A stretch of 64,000 nucleotides of DNA from NCBI GenBank assembly GCA_036630325.1, contig CP142726.1:434001-498000 (forward strand), written 5' to 3'. This DNA comes from Vairimorpha necatrix (Eukaryota). Below the pieces are notes generated by a model that saw only the letters and a list, made by a program, of their open reading frames with translations, had not been told where the DNA came from and did no database searches. This document shows, one piece after another, positions 4,886 through 64,000 of the stretch (positions are counted from its first letter, which is position 1; each line of letters starts with the position of its first letter). Made by a program: the position numbers and the translations under genes.

Positions 4886-6245
4886 CTCTTTTAATTTTCC
4901 TATAAATATTTTCTTTTTACTTTATGACACAAAAATGTCAAGGAAAACAGAGGAGTACCACAAACAGCGTCAAGAACCGCTTTTTTTCAGAAGAGGGAAA
5001 ACTATGCCTAAGGAGGCTATATAAATAAATACGATTTAATTAATAACAAAACTTTAGCACTCGGGAGAAGCATCATGAATGCTATCTGAGTAATGGTCAA
5101 CTTCCGAGTAATACCTCGATGTAATATATTAGAAAAGCATGTCTAAAAAGCAGCTGTACCTATTAGTAGGTACTTAGAGCGCATCTAATAAGTAAGAATT
5201 AGAATTAATTACAGTTCACTATTTCCAACATGTCAATTTTTATGTAAGAAATTGAAAAAACGAATCATTTTTGCACCTGATAGGCATAAATTTTTACACA
5301 AAGCAGTTTAAACTAGTACTCAAAGGCCAAGCTGTACTTCTTAAAGGACATTTATAATCGAATAAGACATGATTTTTTCCTAGCAAAAAGTCTAATCACA
5401 TCGTACATGGGCCATTATTTTAGAAAATGGCCCGAAATGCGTGTTTGACCGAAATTTTTTTGCTGGAATACGAAGGTTGAAGTTGTATTTTAATTTTATA
5501 AAAATTATTAGATTTGTTTGAAGTTTTTTATTTGGAGGTCTTAGATTTATGAATAACAATTTTTTTAATTGTAAATTTGTCTATAGGAGTAAAGCATATC
5601 TCAGTCTATCCTCTACGCATTTATAATCGATATAATTATAGCAAAAGGTCTTTTGCTAAAGCTGTATTCGAAAATAAGTTTATATTAGTTCTTGCCTATG
5701 TGTATTCTCTTCTTGCGACCTGAATATTGAATTTTTGAATGTCTTGTTGTGACGAGCACTTATCATAAGTGTTGAAGAATTTGTTCTTAAGATTGCCCAA
5801 TGTGATTCATTACAACATTAGGTAGAATCATATATGACGAAAAATGAATGGTCTCTAATGCCCTTTTACGATTTTGAAATTGCGTTTTTCGTTTAAAAAT
5901 AAAGATTTAGAATATTTTTTCACATAGAAACATGCGGCCTTTATGTTTAAATGTAACAACTCTTTATTTCCTTTAATATGTAAAAGGTATAAATTTAAAA
6001 AATAACATCAAAAATTGGATGTGCATATAAAATTTTGCGCGGGACTCTAACAATTGTAAAATCTTGTAAGCTCTTTTTTGCAGAATGTATATTTCAAAAA
6101 TTGAGCATTAAGCTATGTTTTAATATTTACAGTATGTTTTTCTTTTGTAAGAACATTTATTTTTGTACTATAATATTTATTTATTTTACATACAATTTAT
6201 GCATCTAAAAAAATGATAGCATCAATTTTAATTAAATTTTAAAAT

Positions 6246-35464: not shown

Positions 35465-37702
35465 TGTTAGACATATCCAAGCTAAGGGGTATTTAATAAT
35501 AAAAATATAAAGTAAACAATGACATGAAAATGTCACAACATCCCCCCCATAAGAAATAATCGTCAACGTCGATTTTTCTAAGCTGCGTAGCGTATCTTTG
35601 TACTTATTTCCCATTACTATTGATTTCATATGTATCGTTAGTCAAAATGCCTATAACTTCTCCTGTTTCTACAAACTTTGGTTGTCCTTTGTATTTGTGT
35701 ATATGGTCTTGTATAATGACTAAATCCCTAAGTTCTAACTTTTTATATTCGGGGGTTTTGAATAAACTCTAGTATCTATTTATTCTGTTTTCAAAATGTT
35801 TTCTTCTAACTTCCGAGAGGTTCTCTATTCCCAATGCCTCTATTGGGGGCATCCCCGTTGCTCTGTGGCTTATACAATTATACGCCTCAATCATCTTATC
35901 TACTCTCTTCGACAGTCTAATGCTCTTATCCTGCTTATTTATTCCTTCGCCCACAGTTCTATTAAATCTTTCTATTCTACCGTTTGAAGAATGGTGGTAG
36001 GGCGAGGTAATATGTTGTCTTATTTTATTCTTTAATAACCAATTTCGTATCTTTTCACTTATATTTTCATTTGCGCCGTCTGATATCAGTGTCTGTATAT
36101 TCACCTTTTTGTGTACAATTTCCAAAAACATCAATATGTTGTCACTACTTTTTGTTTTAAATACTTTTGCGAAAGCAAATCTTGAGAAATAAGCTATAGC
36201 TGTAATTATATATCTATCTTCTGTTAGTCCTATGATGTCAAAAGCGGCCTTTTCACCTTTCCCAAATACTTCTACGTGCCCGAATCCCTTAATTCTAATC
36301 GGATTATACTCCTTACATTTATAACATCTTTTTAAAACATCTTCTACTCTCTTTAGTGTTATGCCTTTCATGCTCTGTTCTTTCTTTACTTGTTCATATG
36401 TAGCTTTTGCGCCTCTATGAACTAATTTTTCGTGTATCTTCATGATCATATCAACAACTTCTTGTTCTTCAATCACATTTATTGTCCCATAGTGTCTCGA
36501 GAGAGCATCCACGTGCTCCAAATCTGTGGGTGTTTTGTATCGTATTATGAAATCGTACATCTGTAATCGTTCTATCCGTCTCATTATCCAAGGAGAATTT
36601 ATCTCTCCCTTGCAGTTTAAGGCTTACAGTGCCTTGTGATCCGTGTATATTGTAAATTTCCTTCCGAAGAGGAAATATTTAAAGTGTTCCATTGCCCAAA
36701 GTGTAGCTAACATTTCTTTTTCTGTAATCGTATAATTCCCTTCGGCCTGTCGTAACTGCCTCGAGACAAACGCAATTGGTCGTTCTACCCGTCTATTTAC
36801 TGGCTAAGTACTGCACCTAATACTGTGTTCGATGCGTCTGTTGTTAAAACAAAGTCTCATGTAAATTCAGGTTGATACAGGCATAAATCCGATATTAATG
36901 CATTTTTCAACGTTTAAAATGCTGTTTCTTGTTCCTTTTCCTAAATGAAGGAATGTTTCTTTTTTAATAGTATTACGAGTGGGTAGCATATCTCTGCACA
37001 ATCCTTTATGAACTTTCTGTAATAATTCACAATGCCTAAAAATTTTCGCACCCCATCTACATTCCTCGGGGTGTATATTTTTTTATTCCTTCAGTATTAT
37101 CTGTCAACGGAGTTATCTTATTATATGTTATGTTGTGGCCTAAAAAGTTTATCTCTTCTTTTAATATTTCAATTTTTTTAAACTTAAGCGTTGCTTGTTC
37201 ACACTCCTCTCTCAACTTCCTCAATCCAAGGAAACCAATCTCTAGTATCAGCTCGTCATCGTCAATAATAGTTTCCCCTAACTTTCTCATCCTTATAAAA
37301 AATCTCGGCACGTTTCTTCCTTTTTCTGAAATTCTCTCAAGAATTCTCTTTTGGTTATTTTTTTATCAAACTGAAAAAATGTATTCTTTCCATGCTTCAT
37401 AAGGGATCTTTCTGGGTTTTTTATTTCTTTCGGGGCGTTCGTGGCTTCAATTATAGCCGTATCTGCTCTGTCTAAGATATCTTCAATCTTTTCTTCACCG
37501 TTAAGGATTCAAAATCTTTCTTCCTTTCTAATTTTTTTAAAGTGGCCTTAAGATCTTTACCAGTTATTTGTATGGTGAGATCAGCCAGTAACTTCATAAT
37601 GCCTTGTTTTGAAATATTCTCCACCATGTTAGACATATCCAAGTTAAGGGGTATTTAATAATAAAAATATAAAGTAAACAATGACTTGAAAATGTCACAA
37701 CA
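35465..37702 (-). mobile_element. Internally deleted Gypsy element with 76-bp LTRs
   Basis: LTRs at 35465-35540 and 37627-37702 differ at 2 positions. TSD GACAT; PBS TGGTGGAGAAT; PPT GGGGGGGA. The gag N-terminus runs straight into the RT C-terminal half; integrase ORF at 35769-36584. Confidence 0.93.
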
Positions 37703-47027: not shown

Positions 47028-48274
47028 CACCAGGTTGATTCTGCCTGACGTAGACGCTATTCCCTAAGATTAACCCATGCATGTTTTTGATATGGAAAAA
47101 TGGACTGCTCAGTAATACTCACTTTATTTAATGTATTAAATTAGTATAACTGCGTTAAAGTGTAGCATAAGACATATACAGTAAGAGTGAGACCTATCAG
47201 CTAGTTGTTAAGGTAATGGCTTAACAAGGCAATGACGGGTAACGGTATTACTTTGTAATATTCCGGAGAAGGAGCCTGAGAGACGGCTACTAAGTCTAAG
47301 GATTGCAGCAGGGGCGAAACTTGACCTATGGATTTTATCTGAGGCAGTTATGGGAAGTAATATTCTATTGTTTCATATTGTAAAAGTATATGAGGTGATT
47401 AATTGGAGGGCAAATCAAGTGCCAGCAGCCGCGGTAATACTTGTTCCAAGAGTGTGTATGATGATTGATGCAGTTAAAAAGTCCGTAGTTTATATTTAAG
47501 AAGCAATATGAGGTGTACTGTATAGTTGGGAGAGAGATGAAATGTGACGACCCTGACTGGACGAACAGAAGCGAAAGCTGTACACTTGTATGTATTTTTT
47601 GAACAAGGACGTAAGCTGGAGGAGCGAAGATGATTAGATACCATTGTAGTTCCAGCAGTAAACTATGCCGACGATGTGATATGATATTAATTGTATTAGA
47701 TGATAGAAATTTGAGTTTATTGGCTCTGGGGATAGTATGATCGCAAGATTGAAAATTAAAGAAATTGACGGAAGAATACCACAAGGAGTGGATTGTGCGG
47801 CTTAATTTGACTCAACGCGAGGTAACTTACCAATATTTTATTATTCAGAGAAGATTTATAATCTGAGAATGATAATAGTGGTGCATGGCCGTTTTCAATG
47901 GATGCTGTGAAGTTTTGATTAATTTCAACAAGACGTGAGACCCTTTTATTAATAGACAGACACAATCAGTGTAGGAAGGAAAGGATTAAAACAGGTCCGT
48001 TATGCCCTCAGACATTTTGGGCTGCACGCGCAATACAATAGATATATAATCTTTATGGGATAATATTTTGTAAGAGATATTTGAACTTGGAATTGCTAGT
48101 AAATTTTATTAAATAAGTAGAATTGAATGTGTCCCTGTTCTTTGTACACACCGCCCGTCGCTATCTAAGATGATATGTGTTGTGAAATTAGTGAAAACTA
48201 CTTGAACAATATGTATTAGATCTGATATAAGTCGTAACATGGTTGCTGTTGGAGAACCATTAGCAGGATCATAA
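47028..48274 (+). rRNA. Microsporidian SSU (16S-like) rRNA
   Basis: Starts CACCAGGTTGATTCTGCC; contains GTGCCAGCAGCCGCGGTAA, TGTACACACCGCCCGTC and AAGTCGTAAC; ends GGATCATAA. Reduced ~1.25-kb size typical of Vairimorpha/Nosema. Confidence 0.99.
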
Positions 48275-48310: not shown

Positions 48311-49904
48311 ACCCACACATGGGATCAATAGGATACCATAACGATGAAGGTCGTAATAGAATACGAAAGTATATTATTTACCTAATTAATATATTTATAA
48401 TGTATTGATAACCCTTTGAACTTAAGCATATCATTAAAAGGAGGAAAAGAAACTAACTAGGATTTCTTTAGTAGCAGCGAGTGAACAAGAAATAACCCTC
48501 CATTGTAATCCTTAATTGGAGTTGTAAATGGTTTATTCTATTAATTATATTTATAGAGAATATTAAATTCGTTATTAATAGAATAGAATAATGTACTTGA
48601 GTAGAGCTGCTTGGTAGTGCAGTTTGAATAAAGGTAGAATGAAATATCTAAGGTTAAATATAATGGTATACCGATAGAAAATAAGTACTGCGAAGGAACT
48701 TGTGAAAATGTGTGGAGTTTAGCCTTATTTTTAAGGACCCGTCTTGAAACACGGACCAAGGAGATTATAATTATAGCAAGATAAAAATTAAATTTTTTAA
48801 TCTTTATTAACTTGATTAGTTATAATTATAAGACCCGAAACACAGTGAACTATACATGTTCTGGTTGAAGATAAGCAACAGTTTATTGGAAGACCATAAT
48901 CATTCTGACGTGCAAATCGATGATTTAAGATGTGTATAGTGGCGAAAGACCAATCGAACTGTGTGGTAGCTGGTTCACAGCGAAATGTCTCTCAGGACAG
49001 CAGTTATTATTATATAGGACATAGATGTAGGACACTGTTATAGTTTTTTAACTATGAGAAATCTTTAATTCTATGGAATTATATAAATTAAATTTATATA
49101 ATGAATCTATTGGGTAACTAGTGGGCACATGATTGTAAGAATGATGTGCAAAAAGGGATGAACCTTATGAAACATTAAATATTCTAAATAGTAGATATTA
49201 TACCATAAATATGATGAATACATTGAGACAGTAGGGCGGTTGTTATGGAAGTAGAAATCCGCTAAGAAACGTGTTACAACGTACCTACCGAATGTATTAT
49301 TGTATAAAATGGAAGAAGATTACTACTTTTATGAGATGTTTCTAATAAATATTTAGGTAGCTGTGCAATTTGTTTGTATTGAAGTATATATGTGAGTATA
49401 TATAGAAGAAACAAATGAGCCGATCTTGGAGGCAGTAACAATATATTTGTATAGATATAGACTAGGGTTTTCAATTATTATTGAAGTGAATCGGTGTTAT
49501 TTATAAAAACAAAAAAGATTAATAATTCTTTATTAAATTATTATAAGGTAACTTGATAATGACAGTATATTTCAATAAATTTAAGATAAATGAATTAAAT
49601 TTAATTTTAACTATGGATTGTCATGATAAGAAATAGTTAGTTATATATACTTGATAAAAATAAAATAATTTTAACCGTACCTATACCGCATCAGGTGTCT
49701 TTGTATCATAACAAATATTTTAAATTAAAGTAAGTAAGGGAATTCGGCAAATTAGATCTGTAACTTTGGGATAAAGATTGGCTCTAGCATGCTAGAACTT
49801 TTACTATGTAAGGAATCTGACTGTTTATTAAAAACATAGCTTTTTGTATTTACAAGAAGTGAATTCTGCCCAGTGCATTTATTGTTAAAGTTGTGTAAGC
49901 GAAT

Positions 49905-49957
<53 letters not shown>

Positions 49958-50056
49958 TTAATTGGTGACGCGCATGAATGGAGCAACGAGATTCCTACTG
50001 TCCCTACTTACAATTTTGTGAAACCACGAGACAAGGGAACGGGCTTGTTATTTATC

Positions 50057-50088
<32 letters not shown>

Positions 50089-50523
50089 TTAGTATGTTTT
50101 AATAAATATTCGGTATATTGTAGAGAGGTGGGAGAAGTATTGTGAAACCACTAGTATGTTTGAACATTTATTTATTAGAATATATGGGGAGTTTGGCTGG
50201 GGCGGTACAGCTGTTAAAAAGTAACACAGCTGTCCTAAGGTAGATGAATGATGGATGGTAACCATCAGTTTATTATAAGGGAATAAATCTGCTTTACTTT
50301 ATGCATATGACTGTATTTAGTAGGGAAACCTTGGCCTAGCGATCCCAATTACATTCATTATGTATTGGGTGATTGAAAAGTTACCACAGGGATAACTGGC
50401 TTGTAGCAGGCAAGCGATCATAGCGACTCTGCTTTTTGATTCTTCGATGTCGTCTCTTCTGATCATCGTAGTGTATATGTTACGAAGTGTTGGATTGTTC
50501 ACCCGGTAATGAGGAACGTGAGA

Positions 50524-50565
<42 letters not shown>

Positions 50566-50790
50566 TAAGTATTTTTGAGTGAACTTTGATAGTACGAGAG
50601 GAACTCTAAGTGATGACCACTGGTAGTGCGATTAACTATTAAGTTATGTTGCTTAGCTACGTCGTTTCGATTAAGGCTGAAAGCCTCTTAAGCCTGAAGC
50701 GTAGCTCAAAGATACCATTTAGGAGAATACTACTCTTTTAAGCAGAACTGTAAGAATGAAGGTGTATGCCGACATTTTGAGGTTACTGCT
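48311..50790 (+). rRNA. LSU rRNA with fused 5.8S
   Basis: 5.8S-like CGATGAAG near the start with no ITS2; GACCCGTCTTGAAACACGGACC; GACTCTCTTAAGGTAGCCAAATGCC; sarcin-ricin loop AGTACGAGAGGAAC at 50591. 3' end approximate. Confidence 0.97.
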
Positions 50791-50858
50791 TTTTTTGTAT
50801 GTATAGTAGGTGTTGGCCTTCACAAGAGAGCGTATTTTTTTTTATTTTATTTGGTACT

Positions 50859-50927
50859 ACCCTCCACAAGAAAGCGTCCACGTCGCGGAGAGTGGGACCG
50901 ATGTTTTTTAACTAGGTGCAGATCTCT
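50859..50927 (+). ncRNA. Putative HDV-like self-cleaving ribozyme
   Basis: Manual fold. P1 ACCCTCC (50859-65)/GGAGAGT (50887-93), 1 mismatch. P2 AGAAA (50869-73)/TCTCT (50923-27), 1 mismatch. P3 GCG/CGC with L3 TCCACGT. P1.1 CC/GG (50894-95). P4 closed by ACC/GGT. J4/2 GCAGA with candidate catalytic C50919. Confidence 0.7.
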
Positions 50928-51046
50928 AAGTCATACCAACCTTCGGCTGCTGGTTGGTAAGTAGGGTCAGCTATACTCTAGGGGTGGGAGACCCATTGCT
51001 GGTGAGAAGAACACCGTTAACTTTCGAGTAATTCTTCATATTTTAA

Positions 51047-51131
51047 ACCTGGGAGAGGTTGGGCATGATACTGAAGCTGTATTGTTCCGCTGAACTGAGT
51101 CGTGTTCTTAAATGATGTATTGAACCAGGCG
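51047..51131 (+). repeat. 85-nt CCTGG..CCAGG element, repeated at 56619-56703 and 61624-61708
   Basis: Three copies; the first differs from the others at 4 positions. Terminal CCTGG/CCAGG are complementary; each copy is followed by a T-run. Confidence 0.92.
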
Positions 51132-51172
51132 TTTTATTTTTATTTTTTTTTTTTAATATGTAGTCAGAGAAT

Positions 51173-52846
51173 ATGAAGGGTGAGACAAAACAAACCAGGA
51201 GCGAGCTCAGTAGAGCAAAAAGTGACCACTTTGGTAGTCCAAACAACAATTTAGATACAGAAATGTATTTAAAACAACAAACTAAGCATGTTTATGCTAA
51301 TAAAAGTTTCCCAAGTGTTACTTTCAAAAATGATGGAGAAATGAAATATTTTCTCAAGAAAATCAAAATTCTCTCAGAAAGAATTAATAAAAATGATATT
51401 TTTGACACGTCAAAAAAAGAAAATAACAAAGATCTTATTGATCTTAAAAGATACATATCTAGCACAACTGAATTAGTATTTATTCAGCAGACATATTTGG
51501 AGCTCTTCCATGACAAGCTAGAAAAACAAAATATCAAATTAAAAAATTTGATTAAAAATAATCTGATGGATGACAGTAATCAAATTACCGAATCATCCAA
51601 AAATAAAATCGAGATAATGATTGAGAATCACTCAAAAGAATGTGTAGAACAAAAGGATAATAACTCCGATGTTCCAAATGATACCAGTAGCGAAACCCTT
51701 CAGTTAGCTACTGGAAACAATGATATTTCTAAATTAGAAATCATAAATGAAGATGTTTTAATTAATGTCAAAAATATCGTGTCTGCTGTCAAAGTAGAAG
51801 AAGAAGATCGATTGTCAGATGATGGCAAAAGAAAATGTATAGGTGTCTCAAATGCGTCTACAAATATTATAATTAATAAAAATATTAAAACAAAAGATGT
51901 TAAGCTAGACTTAGCTTTCATTAATAAAAAAGCAGTAGTTAGACATCTGTCAACTATCTCTGCTATTATAGCTGGTAAAAGAAAAGCTCCTAAGAATGGA
52001 GTCAAGCTTTTCCATATAAACGAAGACGGATGGACATCTGTCAAACACACATTCAAGCCTAAAGTCCAGATAGACTTGAAGAAAAACAGAAGTGGTAAAA
52101 CCACAGATAAAACCAACTTTAATAGATTTAAATCACTTAAAGTAGAAACTAGTGGCAATGTAAAAGTGCCCAAAAAGATTAATCATGAAGCTGTAAAGAG
52201 AAAGAATATCATTCCTAAAAAAGATCATGAAAAGGAAAGATTACAAAATCAGAGAATAAATTTTACAAAAAAAACGAAGGACAGAAAAAATGAGAAATGT
52301 CAACAAAAAAGAGTTCCAGTTTTACCAAAGAAAAACTGGGCCAAAGAGCTATCTGAAGAAGCTCTTATGAAAATTATTAAGGATGGTAGAATTATTTCCA
52401 AGTGTAAGTTTAGGATAGCTCTTGTGTCTGGACTCGGATTGAAAGGGAAACCTCAATCTAGAGACGCTTGGGCAGCCTTAGCTGATGTGGAAAATAAAGA
52501 TATACCACTTATAAAACAATTTAAAGATTCGGAAGTAGTACTTCTGATGATTAGAGAACACGTGGGCCAAAAGGTACTAAGCAAAATTAAAGAAAAGTTC
52601 GGAGGTTCTAATATCTGCGATGAAGTTAATTTCTTCACCGACTTTATGTCTTTAACAAAAACAACTGTTCTAGGAGAGCTGCAAAGACTCTCTGGAACGC
52701 ATAAAAATTTTGTACCGCTTGTAAAAGCATGTTGGTACATAACTAAAGAATTAAATAAAGAAAACCCAAACCATGGTTCTTTCATTATTTTAGAAAATAT
52801 GATGGGTGAGCCTGCCCGAGAATCTAAGGACTTTAACAATGAATAA
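51173..52846 (+). CDS. LINE ORF1 protein, Lys/Asn-rich, no motif recognised
   Basis: 557-aa ORF directly upstream of ORF2; homologous sequence is repeated in copy 2. Confidence 0.8.
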   Translation: MKGETKQTRSELSRAKSDHFGSPNNNLDTEMYLKQQTKHVYANKSFPSVTFKNDGEMKYFLKKIKILSERINKNDIFDTSKKENNKDLIDLKRYISSTTELVFIQQTYLELFHDKLEKQNIKLKNLIKNNLMDDSNQITESSKNKIEIMIENHSKECVEQKDNNSDVPNDTSSETLQLATGNNDISKLEIINEDVLINVKNIVSAVKVEEEDRLSDDGKRKCIGVSNASTNIIINKNIKTKDVKLDLAFINKKAVVRHLSTISAIIAGKRKAPKNGVKLFHINEDGWTSVKHTFKPKVQIDLKKNRSGKTTDKTNFNRFKSLKVETSGNVKVPKKINHEAVKRKNIIPKKDHEKERLQNQRINFTKKTKDRKNEKCQQKRVPVLPKKNWAKELSEEALMKIIKDGRIISKCKFRIALVSGLGLKGKPQSRDAWAALADVENKDIPLIKQFKDSEVVLLMIREHVGQKVLSKIKEKFGGSNICDEVNFFTDFMSLTKTTVLGELQRLSGTHKNFVPLVKACWYITKELNKENPNHGSFIILENMMGEPARESKDFNNE

Positions 52847-55800
52847 AGTATCTTTGTTAAAGTCCTGTTATTATAGGAAATTATTTTCCTATAACAAGAG
52901 TGATATTTTCAAATCTCTAAATAAAAAAATGCATAATCCAATTGGTTATAATAAATTAAAAAATACTTTCAAAACACCAAGGAGACTGAATAGTTTCAAA
53001 TATTTTTCTATTAGAAAGAATATGTGGTGGAAGAAAGTACAAGAACAATATTGTATTGTCAAGATACAAAGAATTCCTTATGGAGTGAAAGATCTCCTCA
53101 AAGACTTATGTAAGAAGAACTCTCTTTTGGAGAATTCCATCATTACAGCAAGAAAGTATAGACGAAGAGACACGTCTTTTACAAAAATAATAGTTGAAAA
53201 ACTATACGCAAATTTATTGATTAAGACAGTTAAAGCTAAAGGCTTTAAAGTTTTAAATGATAATAGAAAAGAACTAGAGAAATCTAGTAAAGTAAATAAA
53301 AAGACCAAAGAGAACATAAAACTCTTAAGTCTAAACATTAATCATCTCTCTAATAAGAGAGAAGAACTTGAGTTTCTTCTTAAGAAGGAGAAACCAGAAA
53401 TTATGTGTTTACAAGAAACTTGGAGACAATCTACAAGACCTTTAAAACTTGAAAAATACACTACAGTTGAAACACCTAGTGGTGGAAAAAATAAACCAGG
53501 ATTAATAACTCTGGTTAGAAATAATGGAGCGATCAGATGTTCCAAAAAAGGAACCGACTCAAACATTCTGCAAACTGTAGTTGAGTTTAGTTCAGCAGGC
53601 AAATGGATTAAGTATTTAGTCTTAAATGTCTACATACCACAAAACAAGGATCTCAAAAGGGAGACCTTGGCTAGATTATTTTCTCTTTTAGAAAAAGAGA
53701 ATTTCAGAAATAACTATAGTGAGATCATAGTGATGGGAGATATGAATATGCAGAGTTCTAGTCTCAAGAAAAAATTAAATGTAGTTGGTTTGCCAGTTAC
53801 AATAAAATATAACAGCAACGATGGTACAAGGATCCTCAAAGATGGTAAAAGATCTAAGAGGAAAATTGATACCATCTTTCGACTAAAAAGTAATGATAAT
53901 GAGAAGATCATTATATCCAAGTCTTGGGTATTAAGTGATCACTTAGTGCTCAAAAGAAGTATTAAACTTGCCGTTGATAAGATCTCCGATCAACTAGTTT
54001 ATGATAAGAAAATGCTGGAAAATCCAAAAGTGATTAAAAAGCTAAAAAAGAAGTTGTGTAATCAACAATTAAACATGAATAATCTCCCCGAGATTATTCA
54101 GAAAGTTTGTACATCTTTGAAGATTTACAAAAAGAGAAGAGTCCATACTGGACTTACAATGAGATGGAGATATTTAAAAGTCTTCAAAGAAAAACGTCTA
54201 GCAGCAAGAGCTGTTATGAAAAATTACAATGAAATCAACTCAATTAGATTCGAATATCTCAAAAAGAGAGTAGACGAAACTAAAAAGTTGATTCGCAAAG
54301 ATAGATCGAAACTTTGGGCTTTAAGAGGAATAAAGCTCTTTAAAAGTAACAGATCCCGAGAATTCTGGCAATGGCTGAAAAATAGAAGTGTTTCCATTCG
54401 TTTGGATCAAGTGGCTCTAATTGACCACAATAAGCTTCTTCAGACTTGCCGAGCAAAGAAGCTAGAAATAGCAAATAATTTTTACGCTGATTTGGCGTCA
54501 GAGAATGATATAGATGTCAATGTCTATGATAAAGTAGATCTTGTTGTTCTTCCCCCAGAGATAACAGATGAAGAATTTCTATCCGCACTGAAGAAATGTG
54601 GAAATAACAAAGCTGCCGGTCCTGATGAGATTCCAACCGAGCTATACAAATACTTACTGACTAGAGCAGTAGAAGATAAATTCTTTAAATTCATGCTACA
54701 TGAATTTAATAAATATATTTGTGGAAATAGTACTCCTGAATATTGGAGCATGGCAAACATGATTTGCCTTCACAAAAAAGGAGATGAGACAGATCTGAAT
54801 AATTATAGGGGAATCTCCTTAATTAACACAATTAGTAAGATCTATCTCAAGATAATAAATGACAGGTTAACTCAATTTGTCGAAGAACAAGATATACTCT
54901 CTAGATACCAAGCAGGATTCCGAGCAGGTGAAGAGTGTATGAATCAGATTACATCTTTACTAGAAATAGTGAGAAGAAGAGAATTCAGAGGCTTGAACAC
55001 AATAATGTGTTTCATTGACTTTGAAAAAGCTTATGATAATGTAAGTCATGACTTATTATTTGAAAAGCTTACAAAACTTAATATCCCATTGTATTTAATC
55101 AATACAATAAAGGATATTTATAAATATACCACCATGCGTGTGAAAATTGGTGGTGACACGTCAAGTGGTTATAGCTACAGAAAAGGAGTGAGACAAGGGT
55201 GCCCTTGTTCTCCAATGCTGTTCAATATATTCATCAATGATATTTTTGACGGCATAGAAGGAGTTTTGATCCCAAGATCAAATACGAGAGTTCCGGGACT
55301 GATGTTCGCAGATGATATTGTTGTCTTCGGAAACAACATTGATGATCTTAATAATAAGATCAATAGAATTTCAAAGTGGGCAGTTAATAACAGAATGAAG
55401 ATTAACTGCACAAAAAGCGGAGTATTAGAATGGAATGCTCATTCCAACATACAAGAATTCCGAAGTTTGTATTCTCTCAGTACAGACTTTGGTGTGATTG
55501 AAGAAGTCACTGAATACAGATATCTAGGTGTCTTAATTAAAAGAAACACGCTAGAAGAACATTTGGTCAAAGACGCAGCAATGCGTGGCAAGAAAGCCTT
55601 AGACGCCTTGATGCCCAAGTTGATGAATAATAGCATCAACCTTTACTTCAAGGCGATCTTAATCAAATGTGTACTAGTACCCACACTAATGTATGGTAGT
55701 GAACTGTGGGGAATGTCAAGTACAAGAGCAGGTAAGATTAACAGGATCTTAAGAAAATCTATCAGAATGATATTCAAAAGAGTATTAGTTCCACTAGATA

Positions 55801-56531
55801 GAGTAATGGACGAGTTCAGTATCGAACGAATTCATATACAAGCAGCTTTAAGTAGATTTAGAGCATACAACAAGTGGAAACACAATAAGACAATCATATC
55901 GGATATAATTGCAATAAATCCGAAAGAAAGAAAAACTACCTGGTGTTCAAGAACACAAAGATGGTTAAAACGATTTGTCGGCAACGAATACGAATCAAGT
56001 GATAGTAAATTTATCACTTCAAAAATAATTGATGTACTAAGAAGTCGAAGAACTTTAAATACTTCCTTAGCTGCATCAATAGCAAACCAATATGACATAA
56101 GAAAATCACAAATAAAATATGTCATGAACAAAATAAATAATAGAAAAATTAGAACATATTTTAGATTGAGATGTAATCTAGTAAAGTGGTCCTCAGCAAT
56201 AGCATATTCAAAAAGAATACCAATGAGTTATAGAAACAAATGCTTTTTGTGTGATGGACCACAAGAAAATTTAGAACACTTTCTGTTGGAGTGCGTCTGT
56301 TTTACTGACATTAGAACATCTTTTGAAAATAAACTGCCTCTACTGACTTGTTCAAAAACAAATATCCGAGAAAAAACCAAACAACTCCTTGGTAATAAAA
56401 TCGGACTAAAAAATAACCCAGATAAGATAAAAGAACTTTGTTGGACTATAGAGTTCTTAGATAGAATGGTTGTCTCTAGAAGAATTATATTTGAAAAGAA
56501 ACTTAAAGAGATAACAAAACAGGATAATTAA
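52839..56531 (+). CDS. LINE ORF2: AP endonuclease + reverse transcriptase + C-terminal CCHC
   Basis: LNINHL, CLQET, NVYIP, MGDMN, IDTIF, LSDH; AAGPDEIP, NYRGISL, QAGFR, FIDFEKAYD, GVRQG, FADD, YLG; CFLC..ENLEHFLLEC. First ATG at 52839 overlaps the ORF1 stop. Confidence 0.97.
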   Translation: MNKVSLLKSCYYRKLFSYNKSDIFKSLNKKMHNPIGYNKLKNTFKTPRRLNSFKYFSIRKNMWWKKVQEQYCIVKIQRIPYGVKDLLKDLCKKNSLLENSIITARKYRRRDTSFTKIIVEKLYANLLIKTVKAKGFKVLNDNRKELEKSSKVNKKTKENIKLLSLNINHLSNKREELEFLLKKEKPEIMCLQETWRQSTRPLKLEKYTTVETPSGGKNKPGLITLVRNNGAIRCSKKGTDSNILQTVVEFSSAGKWIKYLVLNVYIPQNKDLKRETLARLFSLLEKENFRNNYSEIIVMGDMNMQSSSLKKKLNVVGLPVTIKYNSNDGTRILKDGKRSKRKIDTIFRLKSNDNEKIIISKSWVLSDHLVLKRSIKLAVDKISDQLVYDKKMLENPKVIKKLKKKLCNQQLNMNNLPEIIQKVCTSLKIYKKRRVHTGLTMRWRYLKVFKEKRLAARAVMKNYNEINSIRFEYLKKRVDETKKLIRKDRSKLWALRGIKLFKSNRSREFWQWLKNRSVSIRLDQVALIDHNKLLQTCRAKKLEIANNFYADLASENDIDVNVYDKVDLVVLPPEITDEEFLSALKKCGNNKAAGPDEIPTELYKYLLTRAVEDKFFKFMLHEFNKYICGNSTPEYWSMANMICLHKKGDETDLNNYRGISLINTISKIYLKIINDRLTQFVEEQDILSRYQAGFRAGEECMNQITSLLEIVRRREFRGLNTIMCFIDFEKAYDNVSHDLLFEKLTKLNIPLYLINTIKDIYKYTTMRVKIGGDTSSGYSYRKGVRQGCPCSPMLFNIFINDIFDGIEGVLIPRSNTRVPGLMFADDIVVFGNNIDDLNNKINRISKWAVNNRMKINCTKSGVLEWNAHSNIQEFRSLYSLSTDFGVIEEVTEYRYLGVLIKRNTLEEHLVKDAAMRGKKALDALMPKLMNNSINLYFKAILIKCVLVPTLMYGSELWGMSSTRAGKINRILRKSIRMIFKRVLVPLDRVMDEFSIERIHIQAALSRFRAYNKWKHNKTIISDIIAINPKERKTTWCSRTQRWLKRFVGNEYESSDSKFITSKIIDVLRSRRTLNTSLAASIANQYDIRKSQIKYVMNKINNRKIRTYFRLRCNLVKWSSAIAYSKRIPMSYRNKCFLCDGPQENLEHFLLECVCFTDIRTSFENKLPLLTCSKTNIREKTKQLLGNKIGLKNNPDKIKELCWTIEFLDRMVVSRRIIFEKKLKEITKQDN

Positions 56532-56936
56532 TATGAATAATTAAAAACAATAAAATCTAGAAATGGAAGAAAGAGATGTTATTTTACTAACAAGAAAACT
56601 TATATTTAATTATATTTGACCTGGGAGAGGTCGGGCATGATACTGATGCTGTATTGTTCCGCTGAACTGAGTCGTGTTCTTAAATGGTGTATTGAGCCAG
56701 GCGTTTTCGTTTTTCATCAGACTCATGAAAGTGGGTCTCTAGTCATATTATGACTAAGGATGTATCCTATGGGAACAAACTTTTCTCCTACAAGCGAGGC
56801 CGTTAAGGTATGCTGGCGTGTAAACGCACTTATTGATGATTTTTTCTTTATTAGTGGAGTTTTTGGTGGCTTGGAGGCTTTTCTTCGTTTTGCTGATTCT
56901 GTCTTTTTTTACAATAAACAATTTTATTTTTTTTTT

Positions 56937-59900
56937 AGTAGTTAGACATCTGTCAACTATCTCTGCTATTATAGCTGGTAAAAGAAAAGCTCCTAAGAAT
57001 GGAGTAAAACTTTACCATACAAATGAAGACGGATGGACATCTGTCAAACACACATTCAAGCCTAAAGTCCAGATAGACTTGAAGAAAAACAGAAGTGTCA
57101 ACCCCACGTATAAATCTAACTTTAATAGATTTAAATCACTTAAAGTAGAAATCGGTGGCAATATAAAAGTGCCCAAAAATACTATTTATGAAGTTTTAAG
57201 GAGAAAATTTATCATTCCTAAAAAAGATCATGAAAAAAGAAGATCACAAAATCGTAAAAAAAATTCTACCCCCAAAATGGAGAACAAAAAAGGGGAGAAA
57301 TCTCAGAAAAAGGGAAGCTCAGTTTAACCAAAGAAAAACTGGGCTGAAGGGCTATCAGACGAAGCTCTCATGAAAATTATTAAGGGTGGTAGATACATAT
57401 CTAAATGCAAGTTCAAGTTAGCTCTTGTGTCTGGACTCGGGTTGGACGGGAAGCCCCAATCTAGAGATGCCTGGGCAGCGATGATGGAAGTGCAAAGCAA
57501 AGATATCACCCTTATAAAACAATTTAAAGAGTCAGAAGTAGTACTCATGATGATTAGAGAAAACGTGTGCCAAAAGGTACTTAAAAAAATTAAAGAAAGA
57601 TTTGTAGGTTCCGACATCTGCGATGATGAAGAATTCTTTGCTGGCTTCTTATCTTTTAATAAATCAATTGTTCTTGGAGAACTACTGAGACTCTCCGGAA
57701 CACATAAAAAGTTTGTACCACTTGTGAAAGCATGTAGGTACATAACTAAAGAATTGAATAAAGAAAGTCCCGAATACGATTCCTTTATTTACTTAAAAAA
57801 AATGATGGGTGAACCTGCCCGAGAATTCAAGGACTTTAATAATGAATAAAGTATCTTTGCTAAAGTCCTGTTTTTATAGGAAATTATTTTCTTATAACAA
57901 AAGCGATATTTTTAAATCTTTAAATAAAAAAATGCATAATCCAATTGGTTATAATAAATTAAAAAATACTTTCAAAACACCAAGGAGACTGAATAGTTTC
58001 AAATATTTTTCTATTAGAAAGAATATATGGTGGAAGAAAGTACAAGAAAAATATCGTATTGTCAAGATACAAAGAATTCCTTATGGAGTGAAAGATCTCC
58101 TCAAAGACTTATGTAAGAAGAATTCTCTTTTGGAGAATTCCATCATTACAGCAAGAAAGTATAGACGAAGAGACACGTCTTTTACAAAAATAATAGTTGA
58201 AAAACTATACGCAAATTTATTGATTAAGACAGTTAAAGCTAAAGGCTTTAAAGTTTTAAATGATAATAGAAAAGAACTAGAGAAATCTAGTAAAGTAAAT
58301 AAAAAGACCAAAGAGAACATAAAACTCTTAAGTCTAAACATTAATCATCTCTCCAATAAGAGAGAAGAACTTGAGTTTCTTTTTAAGAAGGAGAAGCCAG
58401 AAATCATGTGTTTACAGGAAACTTGGAGACAATCTACAAGACCTTTAAAACTTGAAAAATACACTACAGTTGAAACACCTAGTGGTGGAAAAAATAAACC
58501 AGGATTAATAACTCTGGTTAGAAATAATGGAGCGATCAGATGTTCCAAAAAAGGAACAGACTCAAACATCCTGCAAACCGTAGTTGAGTTTAGTTCAGCA
58601 GGCAATTGGATTAAGTATTTAGTCTTAAATGTCTACATACCACAAAACAAGGATCTCAAAAGGGAGACCTTGGCCAGATTATTTTCTCTTTTAGAAAAAG
58701 AGAATTTCAGAAATAACTATAGTGAGATCATAGTGATGGGAGATATGAATATGCAGAGTTCTAGTCTCAAGAAAAAACTAAAGGTAGTTGGTTTGCCAGT
58801 TACAATAAAATATAACAGCAACGATGGTACAAGGATTCTCAAAGATGGTAAAAGATCTAAGAGGAAAATTGATACCATCTTTCGACTAAAAAGTAATGAT
58901 AATGAGAAGATCATTATATCCAAGTCTTGGGTATTAAGTGATCACTTAGTGCTCAAAAGAAATATTAAACTTACTGTTGATAAGATCTCAGATCAACTAG
59001 TTTATGATAAGAAGATGCTGGAAAATCCAAAAGTGATTAAAAAGCTTAAAAAGAAGTTGTGTAATCAACAATTAAACATGAATAATCTTCCTGAGATTAT
59101 TCAAAAAGTTTGTACATCGTTAAAGATTTACAGAAAGAAAAAAGTCCATACTGGACTTACAATGAGATGGAGATATTTAAAAGTCTTCAAAGAAAAACGT
59201 CTAGCAGCAAGAGCTGTTATGAAAAATTACAATGAAATCAACTCAATTAGATTCGAATATCTCAAAAAGAAAGTAGACGAAACTAAAAAGTTGATTCGCA
59301 AAGATAGATCGAAACTTTGGGCTTTAAGAGGAATGAAGCTCTTTAAAAGTAACAGATCCCGAGAATTCTGGCAATGGCTGAAAAATAGAAGTGTTTCCAT
59401 TCGTTTGGATCAAGTGGCTCTAATTGACCACAATAAGATTCTTCAGACTTGCCGAGCAAAGAAGCTAGAAATAGCGAATAAATTTTACGCCGAATTGGCG
59501 TCAGAGAATGATATAGATGTCAATGTCTATGATAAAGTAGATCTTGTTGATCTTCCCCCAGAGATAACAGATGAAGAATTTCTATCCGCACTGAAGAAAT
59601 GTGGAAATAACAAAGCAGCCGGTCCTGATGAGATTCCAACCGAGCTATACAAATACTTACTGACTAGAGCAGTAGAAGATAAATTCTTTAAATTCATGCT
59701 ACATGAATTTAATAAATATATTTGTGGAAATAGTCCTCCTGAATACTGGAGCATGGCAAACATGATTTGCCTTCACAAAAAAGGAGATGAGACAGATCTG
59801 AATAATTATAGGGGAATCTCCTTAATTAACACAATTAGTAAGATCTATCTCAAGATAATAAATGACAGGTTAACTCAATTTGTCGAAGAACAAGATATAC

Positions 59901-61941
59901 TCTCTAGATACCAAGCAGGATTCCGAGCAGGTGAAGAGTGTATGAATCAGATTACATCTTTACTAGAAATAGTGAGAAGAAGAGAATTTAGAGGCTTGAA
60001 CACAGTAATGTGTTTCATTGACTTTGAAAAAGCTTATGATAATGTAAGTCACGACTTATTATTTGAAAAGCTTACAAAACTTAATATCCCATTGTATTTA
60101 ATCAATACAATAAAGAATATTTATAAATATACCACCATGCGTGTGAAAATTGGTGGTGACACGTCAAGTGGCTATAGCTACAGAAAAGGAGTGAGACAAG
60201 GGAGCCCTTGTTCTCCAATGCTGTTCAATATATTCATCAATGATATTTTTGACGGCATAGAAGGAGTTTTGATCCCAAGATCAAATACGAGAGTTCCGGG
60301 ACTGATGTTCGCAGATGATATTGTTGTCTTCGGAAACAACATTGATGATCTTAATAATAAGATCAATAGAATTTCTAATTGGGCGGTTAATAACAGAATG
60401 AAGATTAACTGCACAAAAAGCGGAATATTAGAATGGAATTCTCATTCCAACATACAAGAATTCCGAAGTTTGTATTCTCTCAGTACAGACTTTGGTGTGA
60501 TTGAAGAAGTCACTGAATACAGATATCTAGGTGTCTTAATTAAAAGAAACACGCTAGAAGAACATTTGGTCAAAGACGCAGCAATGCGTGGCAAGAAAGC
60601 CTTAGACGCCTTGATGCCCAAGTTGATGAATAATAGCATCAACCTTTACTTCAAGGCGATCTTAATCAAATGTGTACTAGTACCCACACTAATGTATGGT
60701 AGTGAACTGTGGGGAATGTCAAGTACAAGAGCAGGTAAGATTAACAGGATCTTAAGAAAATCTATCAGAATGATATTCAAAAGAGTATTAGTTCCACTAG
60801 ATAGAGTAATGGACGAGTTCAGTATCGAACGAATTCATATACAAGCAGCTTTAAGTAGATTTAGAGCATACAACAAGTGGAAACACAATAAGACAATCAT
60901 ATCGGATATAATTGCAATAAATCCGAAAGAAAGAAAAACTACCTGGTGTTCAAGAACACAAAGATGGTTAAAACGATTTGTCGGCAACGAATACGAATCA
61001 AGTGATAGTAAATTTATCACTTCAAAAATAATTGATGTACTAAGAAGTCGAAGAACTTTAAATACTTCCTTAGCTGCATCAATAGCAAACCAATATGACA
61101 TAAGAAAATCACAAATAAAATATGTCATGAACAAAATAAATAATAGAAAAATTAGAACATATTTTAGATTGAGATGTAATCTAGTAAAGTGGTCCTCAGC
61201 AATAGCATATTCAAAAAGAATACCAATGAGTTATAGAAACAAATGCTTTTTGTGTGATGGACCACAAGAAAATTTAGAACACTTTCTGCTGGAGTGCGTC
61301 TGTTTAACTGACATTAGATCATCTTTTGAAAATAAACTGCCTCTACTGACTTGTTCAAAAACAAATATCCGAGATAAAACCAAGCAACTCCTTGGTAATA
61401 AAATCGGACTAAAAAATAACCCAGATAAGATAAAAGAACTTTGTTGCACTATAGAGTTCTTAGATAGAATGGTTGTCTCTAGAAGAATTATGATTAATAA
61501 CAAACTGAAGGAGATAACGAAACAAAATAATTAATATAGCTTAATTAAAAAAAATGAAGATCTAGAATTAGAAGAAAGAAGTGTTATATTTTTAACAAAA
61601 AGACTTATATTTAATTATATTTGACCTGGGAGAGGTCGGGCATGATACTGATGCTGTATTGTTCCGCTGAACTGAGTCGTGTTCTTAAATGGTGTATTGA
61701 GCCAGGCGTTTTCGTTTTTCATCAGACCCATGAAAGTGGGTCTCTAATCATATTATGACTAAGGATGTATCCTATGGGAACAAAATTTTCTCCTACAAGC
61801 GAGGCCGTTAAGGTATGCTGGCGTGTAAACGCAATTATTGATGATTTTTTCTTTATTAGTGGAGTTTTTGGTGGCTTGGAGGCTTTTCTTCGTTTTGCTG
61901 ATTCTGTCTTTTTTACAATAAACAATTTTATTTTTTTTTTT
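56937..61941 (+). mobile_element. LINE copy 2, 5'-truncated within ORF1
   Basis: Begins at the equivalent of 51934, right after the copy-1 T-tract. ORF1 remnant is frameshifted near 57300; same 3' UTR. Confidence 0.95.
57842..61534 (+). CDS. LINE ORF2 (APE-RT-CCHC), copy 2
   Basis: Open, same length as and nearly identical to copy-1 ORF2. Confidence 0.95.
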   Translation: MNKVSLLKSCFYRKLFSYNKSDIFKSLNKKMHNPIGYNKLKNTFKTPRRLNSFKYFSIRKNIWWKKVQEKYRIVKIQRIPYGVKDLLKDLCKKNSLLENSIITARKYRRRDTSFTKIIVEKLYANLLIKTVKAKGFKVLNDNRKELEKSSKVNKKTKENIKLLSLNINHLSNKREELEFLFKKEKPEIMCLQETWRQSTRPLKLEKYTTVETPSGGKNKPGLITLVRNNGAIRCSKKGTDSNILQTVVEFSSAGNWIKYLVLNVYIPQNKDLKRETLARLFSLLEKENFRNNYSEIIVMGDMNMQSSSLKKKLKVVGLPVTIKYNSNDGTRILKDGKRSKRKIDTIFRLKSNDNEKIIISKSWVLSDHLVLKRNIKLTVDKISDQLVYDKKMLENPKVIKKLKKKLCNQQLNMNNLPEIIQKVCTSLKIYRKKKVHTGLTMRWRYLKVFKEKRLAARAVMKNYNEINSIRFEYLKKKVDETKKLIRKDRSKLWALRGMKLFKSNRSREFWQWLKNRSVSIRLDQVALIDHNKILQTCRAKKLEIANKFYAELASENDIDVNVYDKVDLVDLPPEITDEEFLSALKKCGNNKAAGPDEIPTELYKYLLTRAVEDKFFKFMLHEFNKYICGNSPPEYWSMANMICLHKKGDETDLNNYRGISLINTISKIYLKIINDRLTQFVEEQDILSRYQAGFRAGEECMNQITSLLEIVRRREFRGLNTVMCFIDFEKAYDNVSHDLLFEKLTKLNIPLYLINTIKNIYKYTTMRVKIGGDTSSGYSYRKGVRQGSPCSPMLFNIFINDIFDGIEGVLIPRSNTRVPGLMFADDIVVFGNNIDDLNNKINRISNWAVNNRMKINCTKSGILEWNSHSNIQEFRSLYSLSTDFGVIEEVTEYRYLGVLIKRNTLEEHLVKDAAMRGKKALDALMPKLMNNSINLYFKAILIKCVLVPTLMYGSELWGMSSTRAGKINRILRKSIRMIFKRVLVPLDRVMDEFSIERIHIQAALSRFRAYNKWKHNKTIISDIIAINPKERKTTWCSRTQRWLKRFVGNEYESSDSKFITSKIIDVLRSRRTLNTSLAASIANQYDIRKSQIKYVMNKINNRKIRTYFRLRCNLVKWSSAIAYSKRIPMSYRNKCFLCDGPQENLEHFLLECVCLTDIRSSFENKLPLLTCSKTNIRDKTKQLLGNKIGLKNNPDKIKELCCTIEFLDRMVVSRRIMINNKLKEITKQNN

Positions 61942-61956
61942 ATATGTAGTCAGAGA

Positions 61957-62162
61957 TGACTAAGGATCTGTTACCTACAGGAACAAATTTTTCTCCCACA
62001 AGCGAGGCCGTCAAGGTATGCTGGCGTGTAAACGCAATTATTGATGTTTTTCTTTATTGGTGGAGTTTTTGGTGGCTTGGTGGGTTTCTTCGTTTTGCTG
62101 ATTCTGTCTTTTAACAATAAACTTTTTTATTTTATTTTTTTATTTTTACAAGCGAGGCCGTT
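61957..62162 (+). mobile_element. Short LINE 3'-UTR-only fragments
   Basis: 61957-62147 is a diverged copy of the last ~190 nt of the 3' UTR with its T-tail. 62148-62162 (ACAAGCGAGGCCGTT) is a 15-nt internal UTR piece. Confidence 0.85.
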
Positions 62163-64000
62163 GTGGCTCTAATTGATCACAATAAGCTTCTTCAGACTTG
62201 CCGAGCAAAGAAGCTAGAAATAGCGAATAATTTTTACGCTGATTTGGCGTCAGAGAATGATATAGATGTCAATGTCTATGATAAAGTAGATCTTGTTGAT
62301 CTTCCCCCAGAGATAACAGATGAAGAATTTCTATCCGCACTGAAGAAATGTGGAAATAACAAAGCTGCCGGTTCTGATGAGATTCCAACCGAGCTATACA
62401 AACACTTACTGACTAGAGCAGTAGAAGATAAATTCTTTAAATTCATGCTACATGAATTTAATAAATATATTTGTGGAAATAGTCCTCCTGAATACTGGAG
62501 CATGGCAAACATGATTTGCCTCCACAAAAAAGGAGATGAGACAGATCTGAATAATTATAGGGGAATCTCCTTAATTAACACAATTAGTAAGATCTATCTC
62601 AAGATAATAAATGACGGGTTAACTCAATTTGTCGAAGAACAAGATATACTCTCTAGATACCAAGCAGGATTCCGAGCAGGTGAAGAGTGTATGAATCAGA
62701 TTACATCTCTACTAGAAATAGTGAGAAGAAGAGAATTCAGAGGCCTGAACACAATAATGTGTTTCATTGACTTTGAAAAAGCTTATGATAATGTAAGTCA
62801 TGACTTATTATTTGAAAAGCTTACAAAACTTAATATCCCATTGTACTAAATCAATACAATAAAGGATATTTATAAATATACCACCATGCGAATAAAAATC
62901 GCCGGAGAAACATCAAGTAGCTATAGTTACAGAAAAAAAATAAGACAAGGGTGCCCTTGTTCTCCAATGCTGTTCAATATACTTATCAATGATATTTTTG
63001 ACGGCATAGATGGTATCTTGATCCCAAGATCAAACACGAAAGTTCCGGGACTGATGTTCGCAGATGATATCTTTGTCTTTGGAAACGACAATGATGATCT
63101 TAGTAATAAGATCAATAGAATTTCTAATTGGCGGTTAATAACAGGATGAAGATTAACTCCACAAAAAGCGGAGTCTTAGAAATGACTGCCCACTCTAACA
63201 TACAAGAAATCCGAAGTTTGTATTCTCTCAATACTAACTTTGGTGGGATTGAAGAAGTTACAGAAGACAGATATCTGGGTGTCTTAGTTGAAAGAAACAC
63301 GCTAGAAGAACACTTGGTCAAAGACGCAGCAATGCGTGGCAAGAAAGCCTTAGATTCCCCGATGTCCAAGTTGATGAATTACAGCATTAACCTCTATTTC
63401 AAGGCGATCTTAATAAAATGTGTACTAGTACCCACACTAATGTACGGCAGTGAATTGTGGGGAATGTCAAGTACAAGAGCAGGTAAGATTAACAGGATCT
63501 TAAGAAAGTCTATCAGAATGATATTCAAAAGAGTATTAGTTCCACTAGATAGAGTAATGGACGAGTTCAGTATTGAACGAATTCATATACAAGCAGCTTT
63601 AAGTAGATTTAGAGCATACAACAAGTGGAAACACAATAAAACAATCATATCGGATATAATCTCAATCCATCCGAAAGAAAGAAAAACTACTTGGTGTTCA
63701 AGAACACAAAGATGGTTAAAACGATTACGAAACGAGTTATAGTAGATTTATTACTACAAATATCTTTATTTACTAAGAAGTCGAACAACTCTAAATACTT
63801 CTTTAGCTGCATCAATAGCAAACCAATATGACATAAGAAATTCACAAATTAAATATGTCATAAACAAAATAAATAATAGGAAAATTAGAACATATACTAG
63901 ATTGAGATGTAACCTAGTAAAGTGGTCCTCAGCAATAGCCAATTCAAAAAGAATACCAATGAGTTATAGAAACAAATGCTTTTTGTATAATGGACCACAA
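62163..64000 (+). mobile_element. LINE copy 3, 5'-truncated within ORF2, defective, runs off the window
   Basis: Starts at the equivalent of 54411; stop at 62847-62849 and frameshifts near 63130 and 63730. Confidence 0.93.

Follow-up and report, generated by a model that had tools for sequence, protein, structure and literature searches.

How a retrotransposon comes to lie immediately behind a ribosomal RNA gene, and how it might be expressed from there, is the question raised by a 64,000-nucleotide (nt) stretch of Vairimorpha necatrix contig CP142726.1 (assembly GCA_036630325.1, positions 434,001 to 498,000 of the forward strand), hereafter called the window. Directly downstream of the large subunit (LSU) gene of its ribosomal DNA (rDNA) unit stand copies of a long interspersed nuclear element (LINE) with two open reading frames (ORFs). 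We conclude that a LINE lineage residing in the rDNA 3' flank is real. As an explanation we tentatively favor, at rather less than an even chance, a microsporidian L1-like LINE that occupies the first tens of bases behind the LSU gene, in the rRNA direction, and whose RNA would be supplied by RNA polymerase I (Pol I) read-through and ribozyme release.

Three LINE copies behind an intact rDNA unit

Self-comparison by BLAST resolved three same-strand (+), head-to-tail LINE units with left boundaries at 51039, 56611 and 61616. This agrees with the original prediction, made from the letters of the window, of at least three such copies of a two-ORF LINE encoding an apurinic/apyrimidinic endonuclease (APE) and a reverse transcriptase (RT), with no host DNA between them. 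No unrelated DNA separates the copies; each 3' untranslated region (UTR) abuts a 103-nt block common to all of them, and poly(A) is absent from the internal copy junctions. The array continues past the end of the window, while positions 1-50800 were devoid of LINE homology at the DNA and protein levels in the same self-comparison. Its parts are as follows.

51039-51141, 56611-56713 and 61616-61718, + strand: 103-nt block; copy 1 and copy 2 are 91% identical, copy 2 and copy 3 are the same
51173-52846, + strand: ORF1 of copy 1, 557 amino acids (aa), no recognised domain
52839-56531, + strand: ORF2 of copy 1; the frame is open from 52806 (1241 aa), and its first ATG (52839) overlaps the ORF1 stop
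56532-56610, + strand: 3' UTR of copy 1, A/T-rich, 18% GC, no poly(A) run
56611-61615, + strand: copy 2, comprising the 103-nt block, a 223-nt module, an ORF1 remnant and an open ORF2
61616-64000, + strand: copy 3, cut by the window end, internally deleted, ORF2 frameshifted

Decay rises with distance from the LSU gene. Copy 1 is intact. In copy 2, an unrelated 223-nt module (56714-56936) replaces ORF1 residues 1-254, and the truncated ORF1 that remains (56938-57849) carries an in-frame stop at 57325-57327; its ORF2 (57809-61534) is open over 1241 aa, and the claim that two copies have retained an open ORF2 thus holds for copies 1 and 2. The 5' block and module of copy 3 are 99% identical to those of copy 2, with the module partly duplicated, and an internal deletion joins the module to ORF2 residue 536 at position 62163, in an ORF2 that is also frameshifted. 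A module of ~220 nt is found at 56714-56936, 61719-61940 and 61957-62162, and has no match in copy 1. A short 5' ORF of copy 3, considered as a possible in-frame fusion to ORF2, was dropped after the frame was read.

Within ORF2, copies 1 and 2 differ at 80 of 3726 bases (97.85% nucleotide identity, dS 0.058, dN/dS 0.23), and judged by this ratio ORF2 is under purifying selection. Elsewhere, identity between the same two copies is 82% in the C-terminal part of ORF1, 81% in the 3' UTR and 91% in the 103-nt block. Between copies 2 and 3, identity is 99% in the 5' region and 93% in ORF2, the former value indicating that local duplication occurs. Taken together, these mosaic identities point to different subfamilies under selection combined with exchange within the array. 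As mosaics of different subfamilies, copies 1 and 2 are not easily traced to a single truncated insertion.

The rDNA unit in front of the array, together with the short tract that leads into it, is described by three features.

47028-48274, + strand: small subunit (SSU) rRNA gene, microsporidian type (Rfam RF02542 SSU_rRNA_microsporidia, 1056.9 bits, full model)
48311-50824, ends approximate, + strand: LSU rRNA gene with a fused 5.8S-like start (Rfam RF02543 LSU_rRNA_eukarya, 1346.8 bits)
50835-50852, + strand: T-rich tract that separates the LSU end from the fold discussed below, found by direct reading and aligned with a similar tract before the LINE in locus L003 (see below)

The nominal Rfam span of the LSU, 48389-50989, covers model positions 1-3401, and the gene is therefore complete and undisrupted. 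Direct reading places a 5.8S-like motif upstream of 48389, from ~48311. At the other end the nominal span reaches too far: the 3' part alone matches only to 50901, and the last 170 nt are a low-information alignment. Position 50824 is the end of the last motif common to this LSU and the microsporidian-like LSU of L003.

Relatives of the element were retrieved by ORF2 similarity from metagenome and prokaryote-genome collections (84 loci, only distant LINEs); a viral contig collection contained no relative. When the window rDNA was compared with all 84 loci by BLASTN, and 20 of the 84 were searched with Rfam at gathering score, rRNA homology was found in two loci only, L003 and L001. L003 is a metagenome contig of 5718 nt with a complete LSU of microsporidian size (nominal 2.6 kb), in which blocks are 73-97% identical to the window. 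On one strand it reads LSU, T-rich tract and a pair of LINE pieces truncated at the 5' end, of which the first (2806-3033) corresponds to ORF2 residues 799-874 and the second (3510-5710) to residues 507-1225. LINE homology in this contig starts 38-48 nt past the common LSU motif (first tblastn match at 48 nt); in the window, the same motif lies 34 nt before position 50859, where the fold discussed below begins. The LINE of L003 is 36% identical to the window LINE. The same placement in an independent genome, with a LINE of a sister lineage, speaks against chance and in favor of a genuine association with the rDNA 3' flank, and bears out the earlier description of a LINE lying on the rRNA strand just past an undisrupted LSU. 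Both of the clade members with a readable upstream flank (2 of 2, the window and L003) sit just behind an LSU.

L001, a more distant metagenome LINE (27% identical in ORF2, neighbouring clade), instead interrupts an LSU gene: base 123, which lies in domain V within the conserved core, is the last with rRNA homology. Four loci came from the prokaryote-genome collection; two of these, L081 and L082, fall in the L003 group and are internal LINE pieces that start inside the LINE and carry no flank. The metagenome-assembled genomes of L081 and L082 held no further LINE copy and no eukaryote-like LSU.

Encoded proteins and their lineage

ORF2 of copy 1 is laid out as an APE domain (residues ~174-380), an RT domain (657-909) and a C-terminal CCHC motif. 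The Pfam family RVT_1 matched the ORF2 products of copies 1 and 2 at 133.9 and 133.8 bits, respectively (cut-off 29.6), and Exo_endo_phos matched them at 25.0 and 23.5 bits (cut-off 24.5), the second of these values being below the cut-off. Across an alignment of 10 ORF2 sequences, the RT active site F834 A835 D836 D837 (FADD), the APE columns E204, D312, N314, D378 and H379, and the C-terminal CCHC are all invariant. Among solved structures, the best match was human LINE-1 ORF2p (E 4.3e-32), spanning residues 169-914, from the endonuclease through the RT; the next PDB matches were R2 proteins, over the RT only, and L1 endonuclease structures matched at E ~7e-6. The R1 and TRAS endonucleases (R1Bm, TRAS1) were absent from the 17 PDB sequences matched at E<=0.01. 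Compared with human LINE-1 ORF2p, the window protein has ~165 extra residues before its APE domain. The window element also departs from human LINE-1 in having no poly(A) tail and in an ORF1 without detectable L1 ORF1p domains.

The nearest ORF2 proteins belong to two LINE subfamilies, at 59% identity, with cluster members named Vairimorpha ceranae endonuclease-reverse transcriptase. P0124 and P0147, members of the P0001 and P0002 clusters (both V. ceranae LINE subfamilies), each list a longest contig of 10113 nt, and may adjoin on one contig as in the array. Full-length homologues of ORF1 were found in V. necatrix (58%) and V. ceranae (47%). ORF1 had no Pfam match, no PDB match and no usable Atlas match, and its AlphaFold model, with a mean pLDDT of 35, was unusable.

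One V. necatrix protein, P0155, is annotated as an ATP-dependent RNA helicase. It consists of an ORF1 C-terminus, a ~170-residue ORF2 N-terminus (161 of 171 residues identical to the window ORF2) and then a complete second ORF1. Of the LINE proteins with a species name, those of V. necatrix come nearest to the window's. From this composition P0155 reads as a chimeric gene model, and its helicase name is probably wrong. The chimera hints at LINE-next-to-LINE arrangements elsewhere in the V. necatrix genome.

An RT phylogeny had been proposed as the way to assign the element to a clade. A FastTree analysis was run on 93 rows, 3 of 96 inputs having been removed because they covered the RT incompletely (RT coverage was sufficient in 35 of the 84 loci), and a quick IQ-TREE run was made on 45 of the 93 rows, comprising the relevant clade and a few outgroups. 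The ORF2 sequences of the window, V. ceranae and N. granulosis formed a 7-row clade with support 100. L003 and three other sequences were sister to this group, and the joint 11-row clade had support 96 in FastTree and SH-aLRT 96 in IQ-TREE. A wider clade that also takes in Nematocida and Amphiamblys sequences (36-40 rows) had support 99. On these trees, the element belongs to the microsporidian non-LTR lineage. The microsporidian LINE group has been reported as monophyletic (PMC3486916, PMC5381614). The microsporidian LINEs of Heinz 2012, Parisot 2014 and Mikhailov 2016 are of the same lineage, and the accessible portions of those papers contain nothing on placement behind rDNA or on a ribozyme.

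A candidate ribozyme and the start of the element

The original prediction further placed a fold resembling the hepatitis delta virus (HDV) ribozyme ~70 nt after the LSU end. Its helices are present at 50859-50909, but the distance is ~34 nt from the last conserved LSU motif (50824), and the fold is a weak one by score (14.8 bits) and by form (a C.A mismatch in P1, no P4, only A-U and G.U pairs in P2). The rules applied, partly supported by PMC3774820, describe a nested double pseudoknot of P1, P1.1, P2 and P3 with an optional P4, cleaved at the first base of P1. The candidate and the DNA that follows it are made up as follows.

50859-50909, + strand: candidate P4-less HDV-like ribozyme of 51 nt, from descriptor scripts; predicted cleavage 5' of 50859
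50859-65 with 50887-93: P1, 6/7 pairs, one C.A mismatch
50868-73 with 50904-09: P2, 6/6 pairs (5 A-U and 1 G.U)
50874-76 with 50884-86: P3, 3 G-C pairs
50877-83: L3, 7 nt
50878-79 with 50894-95: P1.1, 2/2 pairs
50898 or 50899: candidate catalytic C, with a C-N-R-A context at 50898-50901
50910-51038, + strand: leader, 47% GC, with two short perfect hairpins; LINE 5' UTR or rDNA 3' spacer

The fold resembles the core of a known ribozyme. Over positions 50864-50888, the mammalian Rfam family CPEB3_ribozyme matched locally with 22/26 positions identical (model positions 17-42 of 78), covering the inner end of P1, J1/2, the 5' strand of P2, P3 and L3. Taken over all 4227 Rfam families, the E value of this match was 0.98 when 1.1 kb were searched and 0.21 for 231 nt. 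At 55% GC the fold forms, with the leader, the most GC-rich DNA of the neighbourhood; the LSU itself is 33% GC and the spacer before the SSU is 23% GC. We also searched 369,266 bases on both strands with a compact P4-less descriptor. With a general HDV-type L3 rule added there were 14 starts, and with an L3 pattern from the CPEB3 consensus there were two only, 50859 and base 124 of L001. The latter is the exact junction at which rRNA homology gives way to the LINE; the 51-nt P4-less fold that starts there has 7/7 pairs in P1, 6/7 in P2 and 3/3 in P3, with an L3 of 7 nt. This second fold was called by the compact descriptor only and was not called by the first HDV descriptor. A MAFFT alignment of the window and L001 folds was not structure-consistent.

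Among natural R2 ribozymes are some that lack P4, some with mismatches in P1 and some whose P2 stem has 5 or more bp (PMC3774820). Given this range, the deviations of the 50859 fold do not exclude activity, and on the evidence of its sequence we regard a ribozyme at 50859 as plausible but unproven.

A number of observations weigh against release by a ribozyme from an rDNA niche, and we collect them here. The CPEB3 match, at 14.8 bits, is well short of the gathering score of 35, and the fold gave no global match to any Rfam HDV-like family; neither did the fold or 5' region of L001 give an Rfam match. The window fold departs from the classical form in having an A-U rather than a G.U pair at the cleavage site, in its P1 mismatch and in a P2 of A-U and G.U pairs only. 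RNAfold z-scores were not significant for 50859-51045 (-0.45), the 103-nt block (-0.12) or the leader of copy 2 (-0.24). Descriptors are unspecific when loose: the loose HDV descriptor gave 55 + 51 = 106 starts on the two strands of the window, the compact P4-less descriptor without an L3 rule gave 152 starts in 738 kb (369,266 bases, both strands), loose descriptors match about once per 1-5 kb in this material, and the L3 rule that leaves two matches was picked after both folds had been seen. The evidence from L003 comes from one short metagenome contig, in which the LINE pieces are truncated. The 47 kb around the rDNA unit are rich in transposable elements (TEs), so a build-up of TEs near it is not special in itself. 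Finally, the 180 nt from 50859 to 51038 have no counterpart before copies 2 and 3, the fold preceding the LSU-proximal copy only, and this absence, together with the left boundary common to the copies, is simplest to explain if the element starts at ~51039.

In further Rfam searches, no ribozyme family reached its gathering score in the window or in 20 loci, and HDV-like matches at E<=5 were absent from 8 loci and from the surroundings of the copy 1/copy 2 junction.

Much of this would also be expected if there were neither a ribozyme nor rDNA targeting, that is, if an ordinary LINE with an internal promoter had landed in a T-rich, TE-tolerant stretch and been multiplied by unequal crossing-over, the fold being a chance resemblance. 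The TE-rich, gene-poor surroundings, the sub-threshold Rfam score and non-significant folding energies, the frequency with which loose descriptors match AT-rich DNA, and the local duplication evident from the 99% identity of copies 2 and 3 in their 5' region are all in keeping with this account. It has more difficulty with L003, where the same LSU-then-LINE layout on one strand recurs in a different organism, and with L001, a relative that lies within an LSU and has its fold precisely at the junction. Nor would local duplicates in neutral decay show the dN/dS of 0.23 measured for copies 1 and 2, and the match to the CPEB3 core, at E 0.21 over 4227 families in 231 nt, also counts against this account. 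We consider this account improbable.

The absence of 50859-51038 before copies 2 and 3 also bears on where the element begins, and on this point the notion of a ribozyme-released array, as originally worded, was not supported, as the fold stands before copy 1 only. On one view, the full-length element would begin at 50859 with the ribozyme, and copies 2 and 3 would stem from one 5'-truncated insertion that was multiplied and reshuffled by unequal exchange. This is favored by the closeness of the LINE/flank junction to the LSU end in L003, by the usual location of such ribozymes at LINE 5' ends, and by the GC-rich, structured nature of 50859-51038. On the other view, the element would begin at ~51039-51052 in all three copies, with 50859-51038 being rDNA spacer or a relic. 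The identical left boundaries favor this second view, as does the lack of homology between 50740-51037 and the remainder of the LINE, where local alignment scored 23 and shuffled sequences averaged 23. We rate a start at 50859 as roughly twice as likely as a start at ~51039-51052. To find this DNA at other places, we searched with an 88-codon open frame that spans the end of the LSU, the fold and the leader, and obtained no candidate. Among sequencing runs, the two richest in words of 50600-51500 contained 0.49 and 0.43 of them and every other run 0.18 or less, shares that do not bear on expression, habitat or copy number.

If the LINE does start at ~51039-51052, then 50859-51038 and its fold could be an rDNA-owned element of the 3' external spacer with a role in trimming or terminating the Pol I transcript, or a relic of an older LINE copy; the LINE would still gain from read-through, or might have its own promoter in the 103-nt block. 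Such ownership accords with the boundary shared by the three copies and the lack of homology just noted, with the mosaic nature of copies 1 and 2 (82% in the C-terminal part of ORF1, 81% in the 3' UTR and 97.85% in ORF2), and with the high GC content, which would fit any functional RNA. The 103-nt block, conserved at 91-100%, itself passes the compact descriptor at 51052-51107. This second, weak match is also present in copies 2 and 3, and its two inter-copy differences both lie in unpaired positions; its helices are GU-rich, however, and its L3 is unlike that of HDV or CPEB3. It may mark a second processing site or have arisen by chance. Against ownership by the rDNA, LINE homology in L003 begins 38-48 nt after the LSU motif and not ~215 nt after it, and HDV-like ribozymes are typically found at LINE 5' ends (PMC3774820). 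We view an rDNA-owned or relic fold, with the LINE starting downstream of it, as somewhat unlikely.

Under the explanation that we tentatively favor, read-through followed by ribozyme release, Pol I would run past the LSU end, through the short T-rich tract and into the element. The compact P4-less ribozyme (50859-50909) at the 5' end of the element would then cut the co-transcript 5' of 50859, which would free an uncapped LINE RNA with a 5'-OH and leave the pre-rRNA with a short 3' tail. After translation of ORF1 and ORF2, the APE would nick the corresponding T-rich site downstream of a further LSU gene, where target-primed reverse transcription would copy the RNA in. Repeated insertion, with the site surviving on the LSU side, and unequal crossing-over would stack copies head to tail, presumably with the youngest next to the LSU.

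The arrangement of rDNA in this species invites a further account. The telomere-to-telomere genome of V. necatrix has 18-20 full rDNA loci per haplotype, which are dispersed and neither tandem nor subtelomeric (PMC10759460). LINE and rDNA unit might travel together, if uncleaved co-transcripts were reverse-transcribed past the LINE 5' end (5' transduction) and so seeded single rDNA units with a LINE behind them. The dispersed, non-tandem loci would fit such co-travel, as would the single rDNA unit of the window, which stands among TEs with a LINE directly behind it. Yet the promoter would be missing from a transcript made by Pol I; moreover, a single rDNA locus is in view. We deem co-travel very improbable. 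Its extension, in which whole rDNA units copied by the LINE to new chromosomes would have given rise to the ~20 scattered single units that Vairimorpha has in place of a tandem array, with the ribozyme setting the balance between LINE-only and rDNA-plus-LINE insertions, is in our estimation just as remote.

Comparison with other elements and the surrounding DNA

The endonuclease of R2 is restriction-like and lies C-terminal to the RT. R1 is an APE-type LINE that inserts inside 28S; the original prediction also names its tandem arrays. The window element resembles R2 in having the same orientation as the rRNA and in the way it is proposed to be expressed, through Pol I co-transcription followed by release through an HDV-like ribozyme located at the 5' junction. 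R2, however, is a single-ORF element that inserts inside 28S, whereas the window element has two ORFs and an N-terminal APE and lies behind an intact LSU. Because of its APE, its two ORFs and its position outside the gene, the window element is not R2. It shares with R1 the character of an APE and RT LINE tied to rDNA, but lies outside the LSU and not at the R1 site; L001, inside an LSU, comes closer to the R1 lifestyle. P4-less ribozyme variants like the window fold exist in R2 of the silkmoth (PMC3774820). The first 77 nt of L1Tc, a LINE of Trypanosoma cruzi, hold an HDV-like ribozyme, and the window fold would be similarly 5'; unlike the window LINE, L1Tc is dispersed, has an internal promoter and has no rDNA link (PMC3185411). 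LINEs also make use of other classes of ribozyme (PMC8501958).

LINEs specific to rDNA are for the most part animal elements with insertion sites inside rRNA genes (PMC10946416), and rDNA units into which R2 has inserted are generally inactivated (PMC8789037). A lineage that resides in the first bases behind the LSU would gain Pol I transcription without harming the gene. If ribozyme release is true, this may be a non-destructive variant of the strategy known from insect R elements. In the accessible text of a 2024 review of relations between rDNA and TEs, only miniature inverted-repeat transposable elements are given for microsporidia, and spacer LINEs only for Cucumis (PMC10946416). Likewise, within the accessible portions of the literature on microsporidian genomes, rDNA and TEs, and HDV-like ribozymes (supplementary files being outside the search), we found no description of a LINE lineage behind an LSU gene or of a microsporidian ribozyme. 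With such a lineage, rDNA-linked LINEs, and possibly ribozymes of LINEs as well, would be known from microsporidia too. Self-cleavage of the 51-nt fold would put it with the smallest HDV-like ribozymes found in nature; ownership by the host spacer would mean that Pol I transcripts can be trimmed or terminated in a new way.

The rest of the window provides the setting. At Rfam gathering score, no 5S rRNA gene was found in window positions 1-64000, neither before the SSU nor after the LSU. The 47 kb upstream of the rDNA unit are gene-poor, the sole ordinary gene found being a RabGAP-TBC ORF at 8732-9712, and contain four Ty3/gypsy-type pol ORFs (protease, RT, RNase H, integrase).

2188-2877, - strand: Ty3/gypsy-type pol ORF
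14790-17963, - strand: Ty3/gypsy-type pol ORF
19891-22965, + strand: Ty3/gypsy-type pol ORF
35769-36584, - strand: Ty3/gypsy-type pol ORF

GC skew reaches up to +0.52 at 20-22 kb of the window.

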